64,000 nt of DNA, taken from positions 55,174-119,173 of the forward strand of contig CALWKF010000002.1 in NCBI GenBank assembly GCA_944381215.1, given 5' to 3'. The stretch comes from an uncultured Clostridia bacterium. Its GTDB lineage: Bacteria > Bacillota > Clostridia > Christensenellales > UBA1242. This document shows positions 6,630-26,750 of the stretch, piece by piece (within the stretch, counting starts at the first letter, position 1; every line of letters begins with the position of its first letter). The position numbers were made by a program, and so were the translations under genes. The notes beneath the pieces were generated by a model. It made no database searches, had not been told where the DNA came from, and saw nothing but the letters and a program-made list of their open reading frames with translations.

Positions 6630-7118
6630 CTACACCACCGTAGTATCCGAGAACCAGGAGTCTTGCCATAAATTTAACACCAAATCATATTGGATATTGG
6701 CACCCATTTTAAATTGAAAATAATTTGTTTCAAAGCTATTATCACTAGAATCCCATATTGTTAACTCAGAAAATGATGGAAGCATAAAATATAGACTGTA
6801 ATCAACGCCTTGTTGCAAATTTGAAAACACTATATTATTAGTAGCTGTAGAGCTACCATCTGTTGTACCCGCTTTTATGTTATAATAATGGCTTTCTACA
6901 ATTTGACCGCTAGTATCAATTGCCTGCACGACAATAATAGCATTATTAGCAAATGATGAGGATAATTCACTACAATTCAATGTCAAACTTCCAGCGACAG
7001 CACTGACGGTTGACTTGGGATTAAGTGCTGAGTAGCCAGAAACGGCTAGGAGTGCAATCATTGCCACAATAAAAAGTGGCCAAACTTTTCTTAATAAATT
7101 GTTCCCCTGTTTGTACAC
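6630..7118 (-). CDS. Hypothetical secreted or membrane-anchored protein
   Basis: GTG start with a GAAGGAGA RBS. An N-terminal hydrophobic segment (WPLFIVAMIALLAVSG) is followed by a beta-rich Ser/Thr/Asn region. Confidence 0.55.
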   Translation of the reverse strand: MYKQGNNLLRKVWPLFIVAMIALLAVSGYSALNPKSTVSAVAGSLTLNCSELSSSFANNAIIVVQAIDTSGQIVESHYYNIKAGTTDGSSTATNNIVFSNLQQGVDYSLYFMLPSFSELTIWDSSDNSFETNYFQFKMGANIQYDLVLNLWQDSWFSDTTVV

Positions 7119-7413
7119 AAGAAATCTCCTTCATTTAAATACTTCATTGTTATTATATCTATTTTCGTAAAAATAATCAAACAAATTTAGCCAAAAATCG
7201 AAAAACTTTATAATATCTTAGATTAATATAATTTTACTTGGTAAATTCCACGTTTTTATATTTTAGTATAGAAGTTTTATAAAATAGAAAGAATTAATTA
7301 TTTCTTGTTGATAAACTACAACAAATTGCTTTTAGCATTCTATGAGACTTTCACTTAAAATGGATAGACATTCGATAATTGCATTCAAACTTATGCTTTT
7401 GCTAGAAAAAATT

Positions 7414-7447
7414 TAAAAGCCCCCAAATTATGTTTGGAGACTTTTTT
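7414..7447 (-). terminator. Rho-independent terminator of rubrerythrin
   Basis: Minus strand GTCTCCAAAcataaTTTGGGGGC followed by a T-rich tract. Confidence 0.5.
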
Positions 7448-7452
7448 AAGTA

Positions 7453-8004
7453 TTAGTAGTCTTTCTTTAATAAAGCATAATAAGACTTTGGATGCTTGCA
7501 CACAGGGCACTCTTCTGGAGGCTCTTTGCCGAAATAGTGGTTTCCACAGTTAAGGCAAACCCACTCCATCTCATCCACTCTTGCGAAAACTTCTCCAGTC
7601 TTCACATTAGCGAGTAGGTCTTTAAAGCGTTGCTCGTGGCTCTTTTCAATCGCAGCCACACCATCAAAGAGGTTTGCGATTTCCTCAAAGCCTTCTTCCC
7701 TAGCGGTCTCAGCAAAGTGCTTGTACATATCGGTCCACTCGTAGTTCTCCCCACTAGCTGCCCACTCTAAACATTCTGCGGTCGAGCCCATTCCGTGGAA
7801 CAACTTAAACCAGATTTTTGCGTGCTCTTTTTCGTTATTTGCTGTTTCAGTGAAATAGTTTGCAATCTGCACAAAACCTTCTTTCTTTGCGATTGAAGCG
7901 AAGAAGTCATATTTCGAACGCGCCTGGCACTCGCCAGCGAACGCAGTCATCAAGTTTTGTTCTGTTTTTGTGCCTTTCAAGGCTTCTACTTTTTTTAGTT
8001 CCAT
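7453..8004 (-). CDS. rbr: Rubrerythrin
   Basis: Ferritin-like diiron domain ([34 protein letters not shown]) plus a C-terminal rubredoxin CxxC...CPVC. Confidence 0.92.
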
Positions 8005-8031
8005 TTTTATTCTCCTTTGATAAGACTTGTA

Positions 8032-8062
8032 TTGTTATAACAAAACAAACAATATTTGTCAA
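8032..8062 (-). promoter_or_regulatory. Promoter of rbr with an overlapping 12-bp palindrome
   Basis: TTGACA (8057-8062) - 17 nt - TATAAC (8034-8039) on the minus strand. The perfect palindrome TTGTTATAACAA at 8032-8043 covers the -10. Confidence 0.5.
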
Positions 8063-8069
8063 ATGTTTT

Positions 8070-9347
8070 TTACTTTTTCCAAACTTTTTTGCGTTTAAAA
8101 TCCTTTTCTCGACCATTTTGGCTTGGCTCATAGTAAACTCTATCCTGTAGACCATCGGGCATATATTGTTGATATACATAGCCTCCAAAATCGTGTGGAT
8201 ACTTATATTTGGGCGCATTTTTGTCTATATGATAATTTTTTAAATGCTCGGGGACTCTATCATTTCGATAACTTTCAGCATCTTTTTTTGCGCGATTGAG
8301 GGCAGTTATTACGCTATTTGATTTAGGTGCTTCGCAAACGTAAATAATCGCATGAGAAAGCGGAATATTCCCTTCAGGCATTCCTAGGTTTTTGACAGCG
8401 ACCAAGGCGCAAGTCGCAAGCAGTAGTGCATTACTATCCGCTATACCAACGTCTTCACTCGCATGTGCCATAAGCCTGCGCGCAATAATTAACGGGTCGC
8501 ACCCTGCTGAAATTAAGCGATTACTCCAAAAAAGCGCAGCCTCGGCATCACTACCACGCAAACTCTTACAAAACGCCGACAACATATCGTAAAATATATT
8601 TTCATCGACACTTAAAGCCTTTGACTGAATAGATTGCTCCGCAACGATTTTATCTATTACAATTCGCCCATCTTTATCTAGTGGCGTTGTTCTAGCGGCA
8701 AGTTCGAGTGCCCCAAGAGCCGTACGCAGATCGCCTGCACTTACCCACGCATAGTGGTGTTTTGCCTCGTCCGTAAGCACAATATTTAACTTGCCAAGTC
8801 CCCTTTCTTTGTCCGCAACCGCCCTTTCAAGTGCCTTTATAATGTTTTCTTCGGACAAAGGCTTGAACTCAAAGATTCGACAACGCGATACAATTGCAGG
8901 TGTCATCGAAAACTGCGGGTTTTCAGTGGTCGAGCCGATAAAGACGATGCATCCCTCTTCAATCGCAGACAACACGCTATCGCTCTGCGCCTTGTTCCAA
9001 CGGTGGCACTCATCTAGTAATAAATAGGTCTTTTTACCAAATAACTGGTAATCTTTTCTAGCCTCATCAATAACCTTTTTTGCATCTGCCACACCACTAG
9101 ACACTGCGTTTAATTTTACAAAGTTAGAGTTGGTGGTGTTTGTAATGATATGCGCTAGGGTTGTCTTCCCTGTCCCTGGTGGTCCGTAGAAAATACAACT
9201 ACCTAACATATCACTCATGATAGCACGACGGAGTAGACTATTTTTCCCAACTATATGTTCCTGTCCCACGAACTCATCTAGAGTATTTGGCCTCATTCTT
9301 TCGTACAAGGGCGCATTTTGTTTTGTATTGACATCAAATAAATCCAT
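8070..9347 (-). CDS. rarA: Replication-associated recombination protein A (AAA+ ATPase RarA/MgsA)
   Basis: Walker A GPPGTGKTT, LLLDECHRWNK and the MgsA C-terminal helical domain (DMLSAFCKSLRGSD, YVCEAPKSN) are present. The likely start is MDLFD at 9347; a GTG at 9374 is the alternative. Confidence 0.9.
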   Translation of the reverse strand: MDLFDVNTKQNAPLYERMRPNTLDEFVGQEHIVGKNSLLRRAIMSDMLGSCIFYGPPGTGKTTLAHIITNTTNSNFVKLNAVSSGVADAKKVIDEARKDYQLFGKKTYLLLDECHRWNKAQSDSVLSAIEEGCIVFIGSTTENPQFSMTPAIVSRCRIFEFKPLSEENIIKALERAVADKERGLGKLNIVLTDEAKHHYAWVSAGDLRTALGALELAARTTPLDKDGRIVIDKIVAEQSIQSKALSVDENIFYDMLSAFCKSLRGSDAEAALFWSNRLISAGCDPLIIARRLMAHASEDVGIADSNALLLATCALVAVKNLGMPEGNIPLSHAIIYVCEAPKSNSVITALNRAKKDAESYRNDRVPEHLKNYHIDKNAPKYKYPHDFGGYVYQQYMPDGLQDRVYYEPSQNGREKDFKRKKVWKK

Positions 9348-22308: not shown

Positions 22309-23046
22309 TTACTTCCCCTTTCCCCAGGCGTCGAATTGATATAAAAGTGCACTGGTGAGGGCAACGGCGGCGGTTTCTGCACGAAGGATGTTGTCGCCCA
22401 AACTAATTACTTTTGCGCCCACATTTTCTAGGCTCGCGATTTCAGTTTCGTCAAAACCGCCTTCGCTACCAACAATTATTGCGGTGTCGCGAGTATTGTC
22501 GAGGGCGGATAAAACCTCTTTTGCGCTGGCGGTGCTATGCTCGTAGGCAACAATTATTTGAGAGTAACTCTTTAAATTTTCGAGCATTTTGTCAAAAGCA
22601 AGTGTTTCGGAAATTTCGGGAAGCCTAACTCGTCCCGATTGCTTGCTAGCGGACAAGGCAATTCGGGAGAGCCTTTCACGCTTGTTGCCCTTGTCCTTTG
22701 CAGTACAAAATTTGCTCTCAAAAGGGATAATCGCGTCAATGCCGAGTTCGGTTACCTTTTCAATGGCTATGTCCATGCGCTCAGACTTTGTTAGTGCCAT
22801 AAAAAGCGCAATTTTATTTTCACGCTCGGGAGCAACCACGATGTTTTTTATTTTGGCGAGCGATTCCTTTTTGCCGACTTCAAGCAATTCACACTCGTAA
22901 ACATTGCCGTCATTTAGGCAAATGTCTACCCTGTCGCCTGGCTTTAATCGAAGCACCGCACTTAGGTGCACATTCTCGCCTTCTGTAATTAAAATTGTAT
23001 CGTCCGACCTATTCACAGGCAAGACGAAAAAACGCGGGTACTGCAT
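22309..23046 (-). CDS. rsmE: 16S rRNA (uracil1498-N3)-methyltransferase RsmE
   Basis: PUA-like N-terminus (PRFFV..., HLSAVLRLKPGD) and a SPOUT C-terminus (IIVGSEGGF..E........LG..ILRAETA). Confidence 0.88.
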   Translation of the reverse strand: MQYPRFFVLPVNRSDDTILITEGENVHLSAVLRLKPGDRVDICLNDGNVYECELLEVGKKESLAKIKNIVVAPERENKIALFMALTKSERMDIAIEKVTELGIDAIIPFESKFCTAKDKGNKRERLSRIALSASKQSGRVRLPEISETLAFDKMLENLKSYSQIIVAYEHSTASAKEVLSALDNTRDTAIIVGSEGGFDETEIASLENVGAKVISLGDNILRAETAAVALTSALLYQFDAWGKGK

Positions 23047-23340
23047 AACTTTCCTCCTATTAAATTATAGCACAATGCAATCTTAAAATCAATCTTCATA
23101 TATAAAAAACTTGATTGTAAAATACTTTTAATTTACCAGCATTTTGCTTGTATTTTTAAAAATTTAATAAAAATTCGTATTTTTTGCACGGTTTTAGCAG
23201 TACTATGCAATAGTTTTCAATATTAAGTTGGCTTTTAAATTAATAATGTCTACCACAAAATTAAATAAAACAGTTATAAATTTACTCAAAAAAGTAACTA
23301 ATAGTTATTCCATTATCTAATTAAAAAGAAAAAGAGCAGG

Positions 23341-23568
23341 TTATCTTCTGCCGTGCTCTCTTTCATATTCCTCTTCGATACGCTTCTGCATATAGTACTC
23401 TTTTTTCATTTGTTCGTATCTTTGTTGATCTTCCTTTTCCTGATCCTTTTTCTTGTAATATGCTGTGATGTTGCTCATAATTGGCATTCCTGGACCGAAT
23501 GATTCGGCAAACTCCCTTACCTTCTTTTCACCCTCTAAAATTGTCCAAATGTTTTTAATTGCTCCCAT
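23341..23568 (-). CDS. Hypothetical small charged protein
   Basis: 75 aa, preceded by a TTGACA-17-TATACT promoter and an AAAGGGGTATAAAA RBS region. It lies in the AT-rich islet. Confidence 0.45.
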   Translation of the reverse strand: MGAIKNIWTILEGEKKVREFAESFGPGMPIMSNITAYYKKKDQEKEDQQRYEQMKKEYYMQKRIEEEYEREHGRR

Positions 23569-23774
23569 TTTTATACCCCTTTATTTTTATATAATAAGTA
23601 TATCACAAATTTAATTATTTGTCAAGTTTTTATACTATGCAAGGTACTATGCATATCTATTTTGCGAATAGTTAGTATTTAAAAATCTAATAAAAGTACT
23701 ATGCAAATATATTTTATAAAAACTTTGAAAATTTTTTATAAAAATGTTAGTTTTTAATCAATTTTTTTAAAAAA

Positions 23775-23808
23775 AAGCAAAAAGAGGCAAAGTGGTTGCC
23801 TCTTTTTA
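23775..23808 (-). terminator. Rho-independent terminator of the 556-aa gene
   Basis: AGAGGCAA-agtgg-TTGCCTCT flanked by A and T runs. Confidence 0.6.
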
Positions 23809-23816
23809 GAGTGAGA

Positions 23817-25487
23817 TTATTCATCTAGCTCATTAATCTTTTGCATTAAAGTATTACCATCCCACAAAATTACATCGTTTGCTTTTGCCAACTCACGTGC
23901 AGCTTTTGTAAAAGAGCTGTTTGTGATAACCATACATTTTTGTGCTTTATAATATTTTTTGCCTGTTACAACTTCTTGAATAGCTTTATTGCCAACTGAA
24001 TTTTGAAAGAAATGCTTAACTTGAATAGCTATCTTCTCTCCAGCCTTTTCTGCTACTACGTCTACTCCTTGGTCACCTGATTTTTTTGTCTTATATGAAT
24101 TATATCCCATTTTCTTAAATAGATCTGCTATAAATTGTTCAAAATCAAATGGCGACATTAAATCAAGGTCTATTTTTGAGAATTTTCCATCCTCATCAGT
24201 TTCTGCCTCTAACTCATATAAATAATTTTTTCGTTCTTGCGCTTCGCGCAAATTTTCTAAAATAGTTGAGTTTTTTATAGTATCCACTTCATTTAAAACT
24301 ATTGTTTGATCATTTTTATTGTTATAATAACCATCATAATACATAACAATATCTTCATTTGCCATATTTATATTATACTTAAAGATTTCTTTTGCGTAGT
24401 AATATAAATCTTTATTTTCAATCAAATTTAACCGATCAATATAGTCTTTATAGAATTTTTCAGACAATAAAACATTTCTTTCTTGAAACATTAAATAGAA
24501 TAAAGCAAATTTTTCTACAAAAGTATCCAATATAAAATTGGATTCGGTCAATGATAAAACAAACTTATCAAATTCGGCTTGGGAAACATTTTCAGAAAAA
24601 TTTAAACTATTTAAATAACTATTATTAAAAAATAATTCATTAAAGTATTTTTCCCGAGCTTGACAAAGTTTTATAAGATATTGAATAATTAAAGAGTTTT
24701 CGTTAGTTTCTATATTGTCAAGCAATTTATCTGCACAAAAATTAATTTTTGAAGAGTATTCACTAGGAATATATAACAAAAAGTTAAAACGATCATATAA
24801 AAAGAAATCATTTCTTTTTAAAAAACTTTTTATGAAATTATGAATTCTTTTTTCATTTTTTATATTAGAATATGATTCAATGATGTCTAAAAAAAGTTTG
24901 GATATCTCATTAATTTCTTCTAATGTAAGTCCATCATTTTGAGTGCATACTGTAGATTTCGGTTCTGAAATTATATTACTGCTAGATACTGGTGTTCGTG
25001 ATATATTTGAGAAGTCATTAAAAAATAATTCATTGTACTCAGATTCATCAATTAAGATTCGGCGATTTCCGTTTGTTGAGTTAGGTACCGAAATAAACCC
25101 ATGTCGTTCCATTTGATCTATTATACGCGCTGCACGCGCATAACCCACTTGATAACGGCTTTGAATAGCCGAAATCGACCCAGTCCCCGTTTTGATAAAC
25201 TCAAGCAATGCCTTTGGTAAAATCGGGTCTAATTCTTCATCTCGCTCAACATCTTTACTTTCTATACCCCTTGAGCAAGATTTATAATTATTACTTTGCA
25301 TAAAGTTATCACTCCTCCCACTTGCTAATTTTGAAACATTTTGATTATAATTATTTAAATGATTATTTGTCCTATTTATATTTATATCAGAAAATAACTT
25401 TTTACATATATAATAAATTATATAAATAGGGAGAATAAAGATTAAAAAAACAAATAAAAAATCACCTGAACCCTTTTTCATAAACAC
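23817..25487 (-). CDS. Membrane-anchored protein with an FtsK-gamma winged-helix domain and a C-terminal Mrr-like restriction endonuclease domain
   Basis: N-terminal TM helix (FLFVFLIFILPIYIIYYI). FtsK gamma-like segment SISAIQSRYQVGYARAARIIDQMERHGFIS. C-terminal Mrr_cat-like FEQFIADLFKKMGY...GDQGVDVVAEKAGEKIAIQVKHF...KAIQEV. The roughly 270-aa middle region is AT-rich and unrecognised. Confidence 0.7.
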   Translation of the reverse strand: MFMKKGSGDFLFVFLIFILPIYIIYYICKKLFSDININRTNNHLNNYNQNVSKLASGRSDNFMQSNNYKSCSRGIESKDVERDEELDPILPKALLEFIKTGTGSISAIQSRYQVGYARAARIIDQMERHGFISVPNSTNGNRRILIDESEYNELFFNDFSNISRTPVSSSNIISEPKSTVCTQNDGLTLEEINEISKLFLDIIESYSNIKNEKRIHNFIKSFLKRNDFFLYDRFNFLLYIPSEYSSKINFCADKLLDNIETNENSLIIQYLIKLCQAREKYFNELFFNNSYLNSLNFSENVSQAEFDKFVLSLTESNFILDTFVEKFALFYLMFQERNVLLSEKFYKDYIDRLNLIENKDLYYYAKEIFKYNINMANEDIVMYYDGYYNNKNDQTIVLNEVDTIKNSTILENLREAQERKNYLYELEAETDEDGKFSKIDLDLMSPFDFEQFIADLFKKMGYNSYKTKKSGDQGVDVVAEKAGEKIAIQVKHFFQNSVGNKAIQEVVTGKKYYKAQKCMVITNSSFTKAARELAKANDVILWDGNTLMQKINELDE

Positions 25488-25592
25488 CTCTTAATAATTA
25501 TCAGTTTATCACAACAACAAAATAAAATCAAGACCTAATAAACTAATTCGTTTATATTGATTTTAAAATTTTTAAGAAAAATTGAAAATATG

Positions 25593-25618
25593 AAAAAAGC
25601 GAGTAAATCTCGCTTTTT
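25593..25618 (-). terminator. Rho-independent terminator of the dnaK operon
   Basis: AAAGCGAG-taaat-CTCGCTTT plus a T-run on the minus strand, right after the dnaJ stop. Confidence 0.65.
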
Positions 25619-26750
25619 AGAGTGATTTGAGTTGTTTGTTGTAGTTGTTGAATTTGTCGAATTTATCTGTTGGGAAGTTAGATTCGAGTAGGTCGCGTAG
25701 TTCTTTTTTATTCTTACCCGTTTTGGGGAGTTCCACGCGCACGGTAATCAGCATATCGCCATAGCCGTTTTTGTTTAGTTGCTTGATACCTTTGCCTTTT
25801 AGCTTTAAAATAGTACCGCTCTGCGTGTTTTCGGGAATGTTTAATTCAAGTTTCCCCTCAAGGCTGGGAATTAAGACTTTACCACCGAACATGGCCATTG
25901 TAAAGGGTATTGGAACATCGAGCAACACATCGAAGCCATCGCGTCTAAGTAGCGGGTGTTTGGTAATCGAGATATTTACGAGCAAGTCACCAGCAGGACC
26001 TCCGCGGGTCCCCGCTTCGCCGTAACCCCTTGCAATCACGGTCTGCCCGTCGTCAATACCAGCGGGAATATTAATCGAAGTGGTACGCTGACCGCGCTTT
26101 ACCCCAGCACCGCCACAAGTGGTACAACGCTCAGTAATTTTCCTACCAGTACCATTACATTCTTTACAGATGCCAGTGTTCACGACACGGCCAAAAATTG
26201 TGTTTTGGGTGTAGTTGACTTGCCCTGTACCGTTACAGGTTTTACAGGTCGTGTACTCGGTGCCGTTCTTTGCGCCAGTACCGTGGCAGTCGCTACATTC
26301 TTGGGTGCAGGTGTAAGTTATGTCACGCTTGACACCCTTTGCGGCCTCTTCAAATGTAAGGGTAACTTTGACACTAATGTCGCGCCCTGGGACCGCGTAG
26401 TTTGCTTGCGTTGCGCCACCAAAGCCACCAAAAATGTCGCCAAAGATATCGCCGAAGTTAAAGCCGAAGCCCCCAGTGCTCCCTGCCCTATTGCCACCGA
26501 AATAATCGCCAGCATTTGGGCCGTTTGCACTACCGAATTGGTCGTAGTTCGCCTTTTTCTGCGGGTCGCCTAATACTTCGTACGCCTCATTAATTTCCTT
26601 GAATTTCGCTGCGGCTTCGGGGTTGTCTTTATTTAGGTCGGGGTGATATTTTTTCGCTAATTTGCGATAAGCGGACTTGATTTCGTCCGCGCTCGCATTT
26701 TTATCCACCCCTAACGTTTCATAATAATTTTGTGCCAATTTTATCTCCAA
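25617..26750 (-). CDS. dnaJ: Molecular chaperone DnaJ
   Basis: J domain with HPD (KYHPDLN), a G/F-rich region and four CxxCxGxG zinc-finger repeats. Confidence 0.96.

Follow-up and report, generated by a model that had tools for sequence, protein, structure and literature searches.

In this work we describe a gene found in a 64,000-nucleotide stretch of DNA (further, the window) of an uncultured Clostridia bacterium of the Christensenellales, which originates from a chicken-gut metagenome and whose nearest named genome is that of an uncultured Christensenella sp. The gene lies on the minus strand in an AT-rich islet between dnaJ and rsmE, and its predicted product of 554 amino acids combines an N-terminal transmembrane (TM) helix, a winged helix of the FtsK-gamma type, an all-helical middle domain and a C-terminal nuclease domain of the Mrr type (Mrr_cat). 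We propose, giving this reading an even chance of being right, that the islet gene encodes a stand-alone membrane-tethered Mrr-type endonuclease which restricts incoming foreign DNA of phages or conjugative elements. The gene and the parts of its product are placed in the window as follows.

23817 to 25481, minus strand (stop codon 23817-23819): islet gene of 554 amino acids with the order TM, FtsK-gamma, helical middle, Mrr_cat; based on the open reading frame (ORF), the start and Shine-Dalgarno sequence read directly, and the public gene call P0001.
25401 to 25472, minus strand: N-terminal transmembrane helix, residues ~4-27; based on hydropathy, AF2 and the N-terminal TM helices of relatives.
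25023 to 25250, minus strand: FtsK-gamma winged helix with the FtsK C-terminal tail, residues 78-153; based on Pfam, PDB matches, identity to FtsK and GC content at third codon positions (GC3).
24177 to 24926, minus strand: all-alpha middle domain, residues ~186-435; kept in the gamma-less relatives P0121-P0150 and seen by AF2.
23820 to 24176, minus strand: Mrr_cat PD-(D/E)xK nuclease domain, residues 436-554; based on Pfam, the alignment with Mrr, dN/dS and Foldseek.

In the mechanism that we suggest, the single N-terminal helix would pin the protein to the inner membrane face, and this tether would keep the nuclease off the bulk nucleoid and near the place of foreign-DNA entry. The FtsK-gamma winged helix, presumably copied from a resident-type ftsK, would grip double-stranded DNA and fill the place which the Mrr_N winged helix has in classical Mrr; the all-alpha middle domain may act as an adapter, a regulator or an oligomerisation module, and the C-terminal Mrr_cat would cut the DNA.

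Profile searches bear out the architecture that an earlier note on this DNA had read from the letters alone, namely a TM helix, an FtsK-gamma winged helix, about 270 residues of unrecognised sequence and an Mrr-type nuclease with a D...QxK motif. In Pfam, Mrr_cat (PF04471) is matched at residues 442-549 (E=1.7e-33, 115.6 bits against a cutoff of 21) and FtsK_gamma (PF09397) at residues 85-146 (E=6.8e-17), with no match in residues 150-440, and NCBIfam gives nothing beyond FtsK gamma in the islet proteins. As in E. coli Mrr (EcoKMrr), a winged-helix binder is followed by the nuclease in one polypeptide and Mrr_cat carries the E...D...QxK motif: D474, Q487 and K489 align with D203, Q219 and K221 of the E. 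coli enzyme, in which D203A is a catalytically dead mutant (PMC5435990), and E448, D474, Q487 and K489 (P0001 numbering) are invariant across ten family members. Unlike E. coli Mrr, to which the nuclease domain is only 29% identical, the islet protein has FtsK-gamma instead of Mrr_N, and a TM anchor and an all-alpha domain of ~250 residues in addition. An assignment of the nuclease to NA-iREase1 (PF22722), the inactive restriction endonuclease of NACHT conflict systems, was rejected, its score being 52.7 bits against 115.6 for Mrr_cat and the catalytic residues being intact.

Foldseek searches against PDB and BFVD matched the C-terminal nuclease domain only (MspJI, AF1548, AspBHI, Hjc, Can2 and phage 'restriction endonucleases') and nothing that covers the middle domain, and a PDB profile search gave a weak AF1548 match only. 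An AF2 model built from a 3-sequence alignment has residues 157-435 at pLDDT below 50; with a 16-sequence alignment the middle domain comes out as all helices at a mean pLDDT of 82, and with no match that covers it, it appears to be a family-specific, all-alpha domain with no detectable relatives outside the family. Among the PADLOC models similarity is found at the level of the nuclease only, with no known system recovered: the C-terminus of ZorD (E=2e-26), PDC-S02 (E~1e-17) and the mREase_IV models (E=5e-12) are all confined to the nuclease domain, the first two to the last ~130 residues of the protein, the ZorD model of 1071 positions being matched at 922-1061 only and the PDC-S02 models in their C-terminal nuclease part only (190-307 of 334 and 213-355 of 390). 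With ZorD of Zorya and with PDC-S02, which is itself an uncharacterised PADLOC candidate present in survey lists only, the islet protein has just the Mrr-like nuclease domain in common; unlike in Zorya, there is no SNF2 helicase and there are no ZorABC partners, the neighbours being dnaJ and rsmE.

The gamma domain aligns with the solved FtsK-gamma structures 2J5P (E=6e-10) and 5DCF, preserves the recognition helix GYARAARI(I/V)DQME and keeps R/D/E at the KOPS-recognition positions R1300/E1303/E1306 of E. coli. It is a bona fide gamma subdomain, as in FtsK/SpoIIIE, but unlike there it sits inside the protein, behind the TM helix, and is joined to a nuclease, with neither the alpha/beta motor (FtsK_alpha, FtsK_SpoIIIE) nor the FtsK N-terminal domain matched in Pfam; similarity to the FtsK protein P0005 is limited to its last ~75 residues. 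This bears on a neighbouring explanation, that of a strict type IV enzyme of the Mrr kind, in which the winged helix, the middle domain or both sense modified (methylated or hypermodified) DNA and thereby permit cleavage, the anchoring being secondary. A winged helix with Mrr_cat parallels the pair of Mrr_N and Mrr_cat, the catalytic motif is that of E. coli Mrr, among PDB structures the nuclease domain is matched best by MspJI and AspBHI, both modification-dependent, the mREase_IV models do match, and prokaryotic winged-helix domains are capable of sensing 6mA (PMC11037411). FtsK-gamma, however, reads motifs of unmodified sequence and partners XerD (PMC2680272, PMC2965235), the residues of its recognition helix are retained, and no Mrr_N, SRA, EVE or other known modification sensor is matched in the protein (Pfam); we consider the type IV explanation unlikely.

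The arrangement of the window recurs in a closely related genome (L001/L002), which permits a comparison of substitution rates. The flanking genes of the window and L001 have 97-99.7% protein identity (dN 0.001-0.018, dS 0.03-0.17), and the islet protein has 85% (dN 0.078, dS 0.32, dN/dS 0.24), which makes its dN 5-50 times and its dS 2-5 times those of the flanks. Constraint is strongest in the nuclease domain (dN/dS 0.07), and the gamma and N-terminal regions evolve fastest at the protein level. Since the ratio is 0.24 overall and 0.07 in the nuclease, the islet gene is functional, with its nuclease under strong purifying selection, and it represents an older or faster-evolving allele than its surroundings. 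Such a pattern of divergence is typical of conflict genes, and gene-wide positive selection is not indicated.

When the dnaJ-rsmE interval is compared in relatives, the islet gene proves to be absent from two more distant genomes, L004 (RsmE identity 78%) and L005 (66%), in which the flanking genes are kept, and an ortholog of 50% identity (P0003) sits in a different locus of another genome, after a tex-like gene. Composition is foreign as well: GC content is 0.22-0.33 at positions 23000-25600 and 0.40-0.52 in the flanks, and the gene itself has GC 0.274 and GC3 0.205 compared to GC3 of 0.48-0.55 in the host housekeeping genes. By these comparisons of sequence the islet gene is an accessory, horizontally acquired single-gene insertion. 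The same observations speak to a housekeeping role in chromosome handling, for instance clearing of septum-trapped DNA or, as the earlier note had considered, action on the chromosome in sporulation. An anchor, an FtsK-derived DNA reader and a nuclease would formally suit DNA at the division septum, yet two related genomes in which the locus is otherwise the same lack the gene, its composition is foreign, its ortholog lies elsewhere, the sister architectures described below are carried by prophages, and the protein has neither a motor nor the N-terminal domain that targets FtsK to the septum. With close relatives differing in whether they possess the gene, and with prophages carrying it elsewhere, such a role is, in our opinion, highly improbable.

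When 1.84 billion representative proteins were searched exhaustively with a profile, full-length matches to the exact architecture were limited to two clusters, those of P0001 and P0003, with P0002 falling into the same 50% cluster as P0001. The closest relatives beyond them (P0121-P0150, of which P0121 has 42% identity over residues 165-553) possess the middle domain, Mrr_cat and 1-2 N-terminal TM helices without gamma, and it is therefore suggested that gamma was inserted into a pre-existing TM-helical-Mrr protein in this lineage. The subfamily of the window gene consists of chromosomal AT-rich singletons (the window with L001, L003, L008 and L009). One of them, the Mrr relative P0006 in L009, is an AT-rich insertion near spo0A (GC 0.25 vs 0.34), and the 149-aa gene directly 3' of it (L009 6060-6509) is just as rich in AT; in L008 a divergent 74-aa gene of the XRE-type helix-turn-helix (86-310) adjoins P0121.

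The pairing itself is much wider. According to the HMM census, gamma and Mrr_cat are both found in 53 of the 156 best-match representatives, about two-thirds of these proteins have predicted TM segments, and the domain orders include TM-gamma-Mrr, 2TM-gamma-Mrr, 2-4TM-Mrr-gamma, Mrr-gamma-2TM, Mrr-gamma-Mrr and gamma-Mrr-gamma; the pairing is common, and it is its combination with the helical middle domain that is very rare. The impression of the earlier note that the combination is unrecognised holds in so far as literature searches on the architecture, on PDC-S02 function and on KOPS-based immunity found no description, and has to be given up for gamma with Mrr_cat as such. These other proteins have the same two domains, are usually membrane-anchored and uncharacterised, and carry the public label 'restriction endonuclease' only (for instance P0230, P0144 and P0126/MCI7740108.1); they differ from the islet protein in being compact (240-500 aa), in lacking the helical middle and in their other domain orders, and they probably represent the same functional theme.

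The anchor of the islet protein is seen as a hydrophobic helix at residues 4-22 by hydropathy and as a helix at 7-33 in AF2, and its relatives have 1-2 N-terminal TM helices. Where the anchors of gamma + Mrr_cat proteins are even-numbered or C-terminal TM hairpins without signal peptides, the soluble domains are expected to be cytoplasmic.

Three gamma + Mrr_cat loci, which are independent genes on contigs long enough to judge the context, were examined: a 316-aa gene in L054, P0230 (2TM-gamma-Mrr) and P0144 (gamma-Mrr-gamma). Each of them lies directly 3' of a cI-like XRE repressor, co-oriented with it, and all three are in prophage-like elements, which between them hold RecT/YqaJ/RusA, Bro-N/ANT, holin, endolysin and HicAB genes. 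P0230 and P0144 stand between the repressor and a tyrosine integrase just downstream, and no integrase is visible on the L054 fragment. The position right after a cI-like repressor is a classic site of superinfection-exclusion and defence genes of prophages. Defence, which the earlier note had named among possible roles, is now the best-supported one; the place of these sister genes in prophage lysogeny modules speaks for it, and so do the PADLOC matches of the nuclease to ZorD, the candidate PDC-S02 and type IV enzymes.

The lysogeny-module location fits abortive infection genes too, and one may imagine a toxin: a nuclease held inactive at the membrane, freed or activated on infection and steered by gamma, as a reader of KOPS-like motifs of the host, to the host chromosome, which it would destroy. 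The close mimicry by gamma of the FtsK gammas of related Clostridia, recognition helix included, would agree with such a function, and so would the high toxicity, through nucleoid binding, of the SNIPE nuclease deprived of its TM helix, which shows how a tethered nuclease could kill. However, neither a sensor nor a protease site is present, and the gene has no partner, antitoxin-like or other, the 75-aa neighbour being ancestral and unlinked; the multi-pass hairpin anchors of many relatives favour a permanent tether over a releasable one; we find abortive infection quite unlikely.

The integrase next to two of the sister genes raises one more alternative, a factor directed to Xer/dif, in which gamma would bind a XerD-type tyrosine recombinase and bring the nuclease to complexes of recombinase and DNA, for instance to block elements integrating via Xer or phage integrases or to modulate prophage integration and excision. 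FtsK-gamma is an activator of XerD. It touches XerD via the TEKRKA loop (PMC2965235), the structure 5DCF is among the matches, sister genes do lie between the repressor and a tyrosine integrase, and gamma tracks lineage-specific FtsK gammas, as would be expected for a lineage-specific protein partner. On the other hand, the contact loop reads KTGTGS here, which is unlike TEKRKA of E. coli and differs even from RAGTGS of the closest FtsKs, no recombinase gene is found near the window copy, and proximity to an integrase is the normal layout of a lysogeny module; a Xer-directed function therefore appears very unlikely.

For the membrane-tethered restriction of incoming DNA that we prefer, the closest mechanistic precedent would be SNIPE, by analogy and not by membership. 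SNIPE is a membrane-bound GIY-YIG nuclease which cuts phage DNA during injection; it has one TM helix, a DNA-binding middle domain (DUF4041) and a C-terminal nuclease as the most conserved part, its variable N-terminal adapters borrow from inner-membrane and division proteins of the host, and without the TM helix it becomes highly toxic by binding the nucleoid (bioRxiv 10.1101/2025.11.03.685801). The islet protein would resemble it in a predicted single N-terminal TM helix, the DNA-binding or adapter region, variable N-terminal regions with pieces borrowed from such host proteins, and the C-terminal nuclease, again the most conserved part. That the remainder of the protein lies in the cytoplasm would follow from the 2-TM or C-terminal hairpin anchors of the relatives. 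Unlike SNIPE, the islet protein has no DUF4041 and no GIY-YIG domain, and no relationship of sequence or fold connects the two.

Several observations weigh against restriction of foreign DNA as the role of the islet gene. The sister genes with context examined are prophage-borne, whereas the window copy is a chromosomal singleton, a lone gene among housekeeping genes outside any defence island or prophage; no known defence-system model in PADLOC matches past the nuclease domain; a scan of viral contigs returned no relative of the islet protein, and tblastn against phages and plasmids found each domain apart and never both in one gene. The topology of the single TM helix is ambiguous by charge, with K/R on both sides of the helix. 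It is also unclear how non-specific DNA binding alone would account for the mirroring of particular FtsK clades by gamma, which is considered next.

The gammas of P0001 and P0002 are 78-88% identical to the last ~75 residues of the FtsK proteins P0004 and P0005, into the C-terminal tail, with 78-82% for the patch of the window gene, and only 64-71% identical to the gamma of the ortholog P0003, which in its turn is 82-85% identical to the gamma of FtsK P0019 and has a one-residue deletion in common with it. In neighbour-joining trees P0003 groups with its FtsK clade at 90% bootstrap and P0001/P0002 with theirs at 77%, and monophyly of the three fusion gammas receives 1.3%; the indel was left out as a tree character and therefore gives independent support to the grouping of P0003 with FtsK. 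GC3 of the gamma patch in the window gene is 0.36, compared to 0.18 in the rest of the gene and 0.32-0.36 in the look-alike FtsK gammas; the patch of P0003 has 0.20 and its look-alike clade 0.23-0.25. At conserved residues the codon identity of fusion gammas with FtsK gammas (0.58-0.61) reaches that of FtsK orthologs within a clade and exceeds that between clades (0.40). The simplest reading of these sequence data would be that ftsK served as the donor at least twice, by capture or gene conversion, after the divergence of the two orthologs. Gamma tracks different FtsK clades, and the look-alike FtsKs come from other species than the fusion hosts, as housekeeping GC3 of the loci L006/L091 and L007/L094 indicates; the samples differ as well.

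To our knowledge, no bacterial reader of chromosome-polarity motifs other than FtsK-gamma is known. One may speculate that it gives the nuclease a lineage-specific reading of a host KOPS/SRS-like polarity motif, or of the Xer machinery, for self/non-self discrimination or for gating of cleavage, an idea which we hold to be unlikely. If true, it would be an immunity based on sequence marks, comparable to Chi for RecBCD, and the repeated re-capture or conversion of gamma from a resident-type ftsK, with polyphyly at 77-90% bootstrap, the shared indel and the matching GC3 as its evidence, would reflect selection that keeps the reader of the nuclease matched to the FtsK reader of the host. Neutral concerted evolution is an alternative to selection for the likeness of gamma to FtsK.

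Outside canonical FtsK, gamma evidently behaves as a module that moves and multiplies. We also saw P0135 (362 aa), which is made up entirely of four FtsK-gamma domains in tandem, and P0174 (671 aa), an FtsK motor followed by three gamma domains. In L082 (6927-9129) a 479-aa protein of a TM helix, FtsK motor and gamma is encoded directly 5' of a separate 252-aa Mrr_cat gene, in a region that also holds a DnaB-like helicase; the pair looks like a split counterpart of the gamma + Mrr_cat fusions and possibly a two-gene translocase-nuclease system. In a chicken-gut run (X1) a contig of low depth (2.6 vs ~10) joins window position 24820 to 25015, skipping 194 bases just 3' of the gamma patch, where the linker and the first part of the middle domain are encoded; the shorter side is backed by 21 letters only, 194 is not divisible by 3, and the join probably reflects an artefact of assembly or else a rare variant that is broken.

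The gene order at the locus is hrcA-grpE-dnaK-dnaJ-[554-aa islet gene]-[75-aa gene]-rsmE-mtaB. Two ORFs lie on the minus strand between dnaJ (25617..26750) and rsmE (22309..23046), whose identities are confirmed by Pfam: 23817..25487 (556 aa) and 23341..23568 (75 aa). The longer ORF is real, but its GTG at 25487 falls within the Shine-Dalgarno sequence AAGAGGTG, and the true start is therefore the ATG at 25481, which gives 554 amino acids in place of the 556 of the earlier note and a product identical to the public call P0001. The signals that delimit the gene are these.

25485 to 25492, minus strand: Shine-Dalgarno sequence AAGAGGTG of the islet gene; read directly and conserved in L001.
23778 to 23808, minus strand: intrinsic terminator of the islet gene, a 13-bp stem followed by a T-run; conserved in L001.
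25594 to 25618, minus strand: dnaJ terminator, the upstream boundary of the insertion; similarity to L004 and L005 stops just past the dnaJ stop codon.

The inserted DNA measures ~2.05 kb (~23,570-25,616), from the dnaJ terminator to the promoter of the 75-aa gene. An AT-rich islet of about 2.5 kb with promoters and terminators of its own had been described: the insertion is real in relation to the related genomes, and its size has to be reduced to ~2.05 kb because the 75-aa gene and its promoter are kept in genomes without the islet gene; the terminators after dnaJ and the islet gene and the promoter of the 75-aa gene stand, while promoter-like matches 5' of the islet gene are weak. No integrase or transposase nearby, no tRNA and no Rfam family was found at the islet, and the repeats at its flanks are AT-rich chance ones, none of them convincing as a target-site duplication or as terminal inverted repeats. 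In Bacillus and Clostridium prmA sits where the 75-aa gene lies here. It is not in the dnaJ-rsmE slot of any related genome examined, and the islet is therefore no recent displacer of prmA; elsewhere in the window it was looked for among ten scanned ORFs of 224-333 aa and not found. In the L001 record (7756-8923) the match to dnaJ is split in two (residues 1-220 and 227-377), and the called gene is only a 140-aa DnaJ_C, which points to a frameshift or to faulty assembly of this record.

The 75-aa gene had been counted as a part of the same module, and we rejected it as a partner of the islet gene, since it is conserved where the islet gene is lacking. Its product, a highly charged protein (MGAIKNIW...EYEREHGRR) with no match in Pfam, NCBIfam or PADLOC, is 100% identical in L001, 85% in L004 and 64% in L005, and the last two genomes carry the gene and its promoter region alone, which means that the two genes do not consistently co-occur; nor is it seen beside P0003, on its contig, or beside P0121. 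In this clade the 75-aa gene is a conserved feature of the dnaJ-rsmE slot; it is ancestral there and does not belong to the insertion. It is accompanied by a short repeat.

23201-23210, 23633-23642, 23645-23654 and 23697-23706, minus strand: copies of TTGCATAGTA, 5' of the 75-aa gene and of rsmE.

All three exact copies of TTGCATAGTA in the window and one of its ten single-mismatch matches cluster near the 75-aa gene and rsmE. Those 5' of the 75-aa gene stand just 5' of its near-consensus promoter TTGACA-17-TATACT and are kept in L001, L004 (three copies) and L005; judged by position and conservation, they look like an operator for a regulator. In the Christensenella-like genome L004 the spacer between the 75-aa gene and rsmE (7090-7965) is ~880 bp long, compared to 295 bp in the window, and has no ORF above 67 aa; two short ORFs in it have the peptide EGSIPLKN in common, which suggests repeated or degenerate DNA.

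The annotation of the locus can be corrected accordingly: the protein has 554 amino acids, the 75-aa gene is unrelated to it, and the public label is a generic 'restriction endonuclease'. Our finding is best filed as a case of a widespread and uncharacterised theme, gamma with Mrr_cat, in which the gamma that mimics FtsK is the feature most worth experiment. This family appears to be common in gut Firmicutes and their prophages, and if our proposal is right, the fifty-plus clusters of gamma + Mrr_cat would constitute an unstudied family of single-gene membrane-tethered anti-phage nucleases, and the spatial discrimination of self and non-self known from SNIPE, Zorya and Kiwa would extend to the Mrr nuclease fold. 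The repeated grafting of gamma on nucleases, together with its lasting likeness to particular FtsK lineages, also raises the question whether immune nucleases may exploit the polarity code of the chromosome or the Xer machinery.

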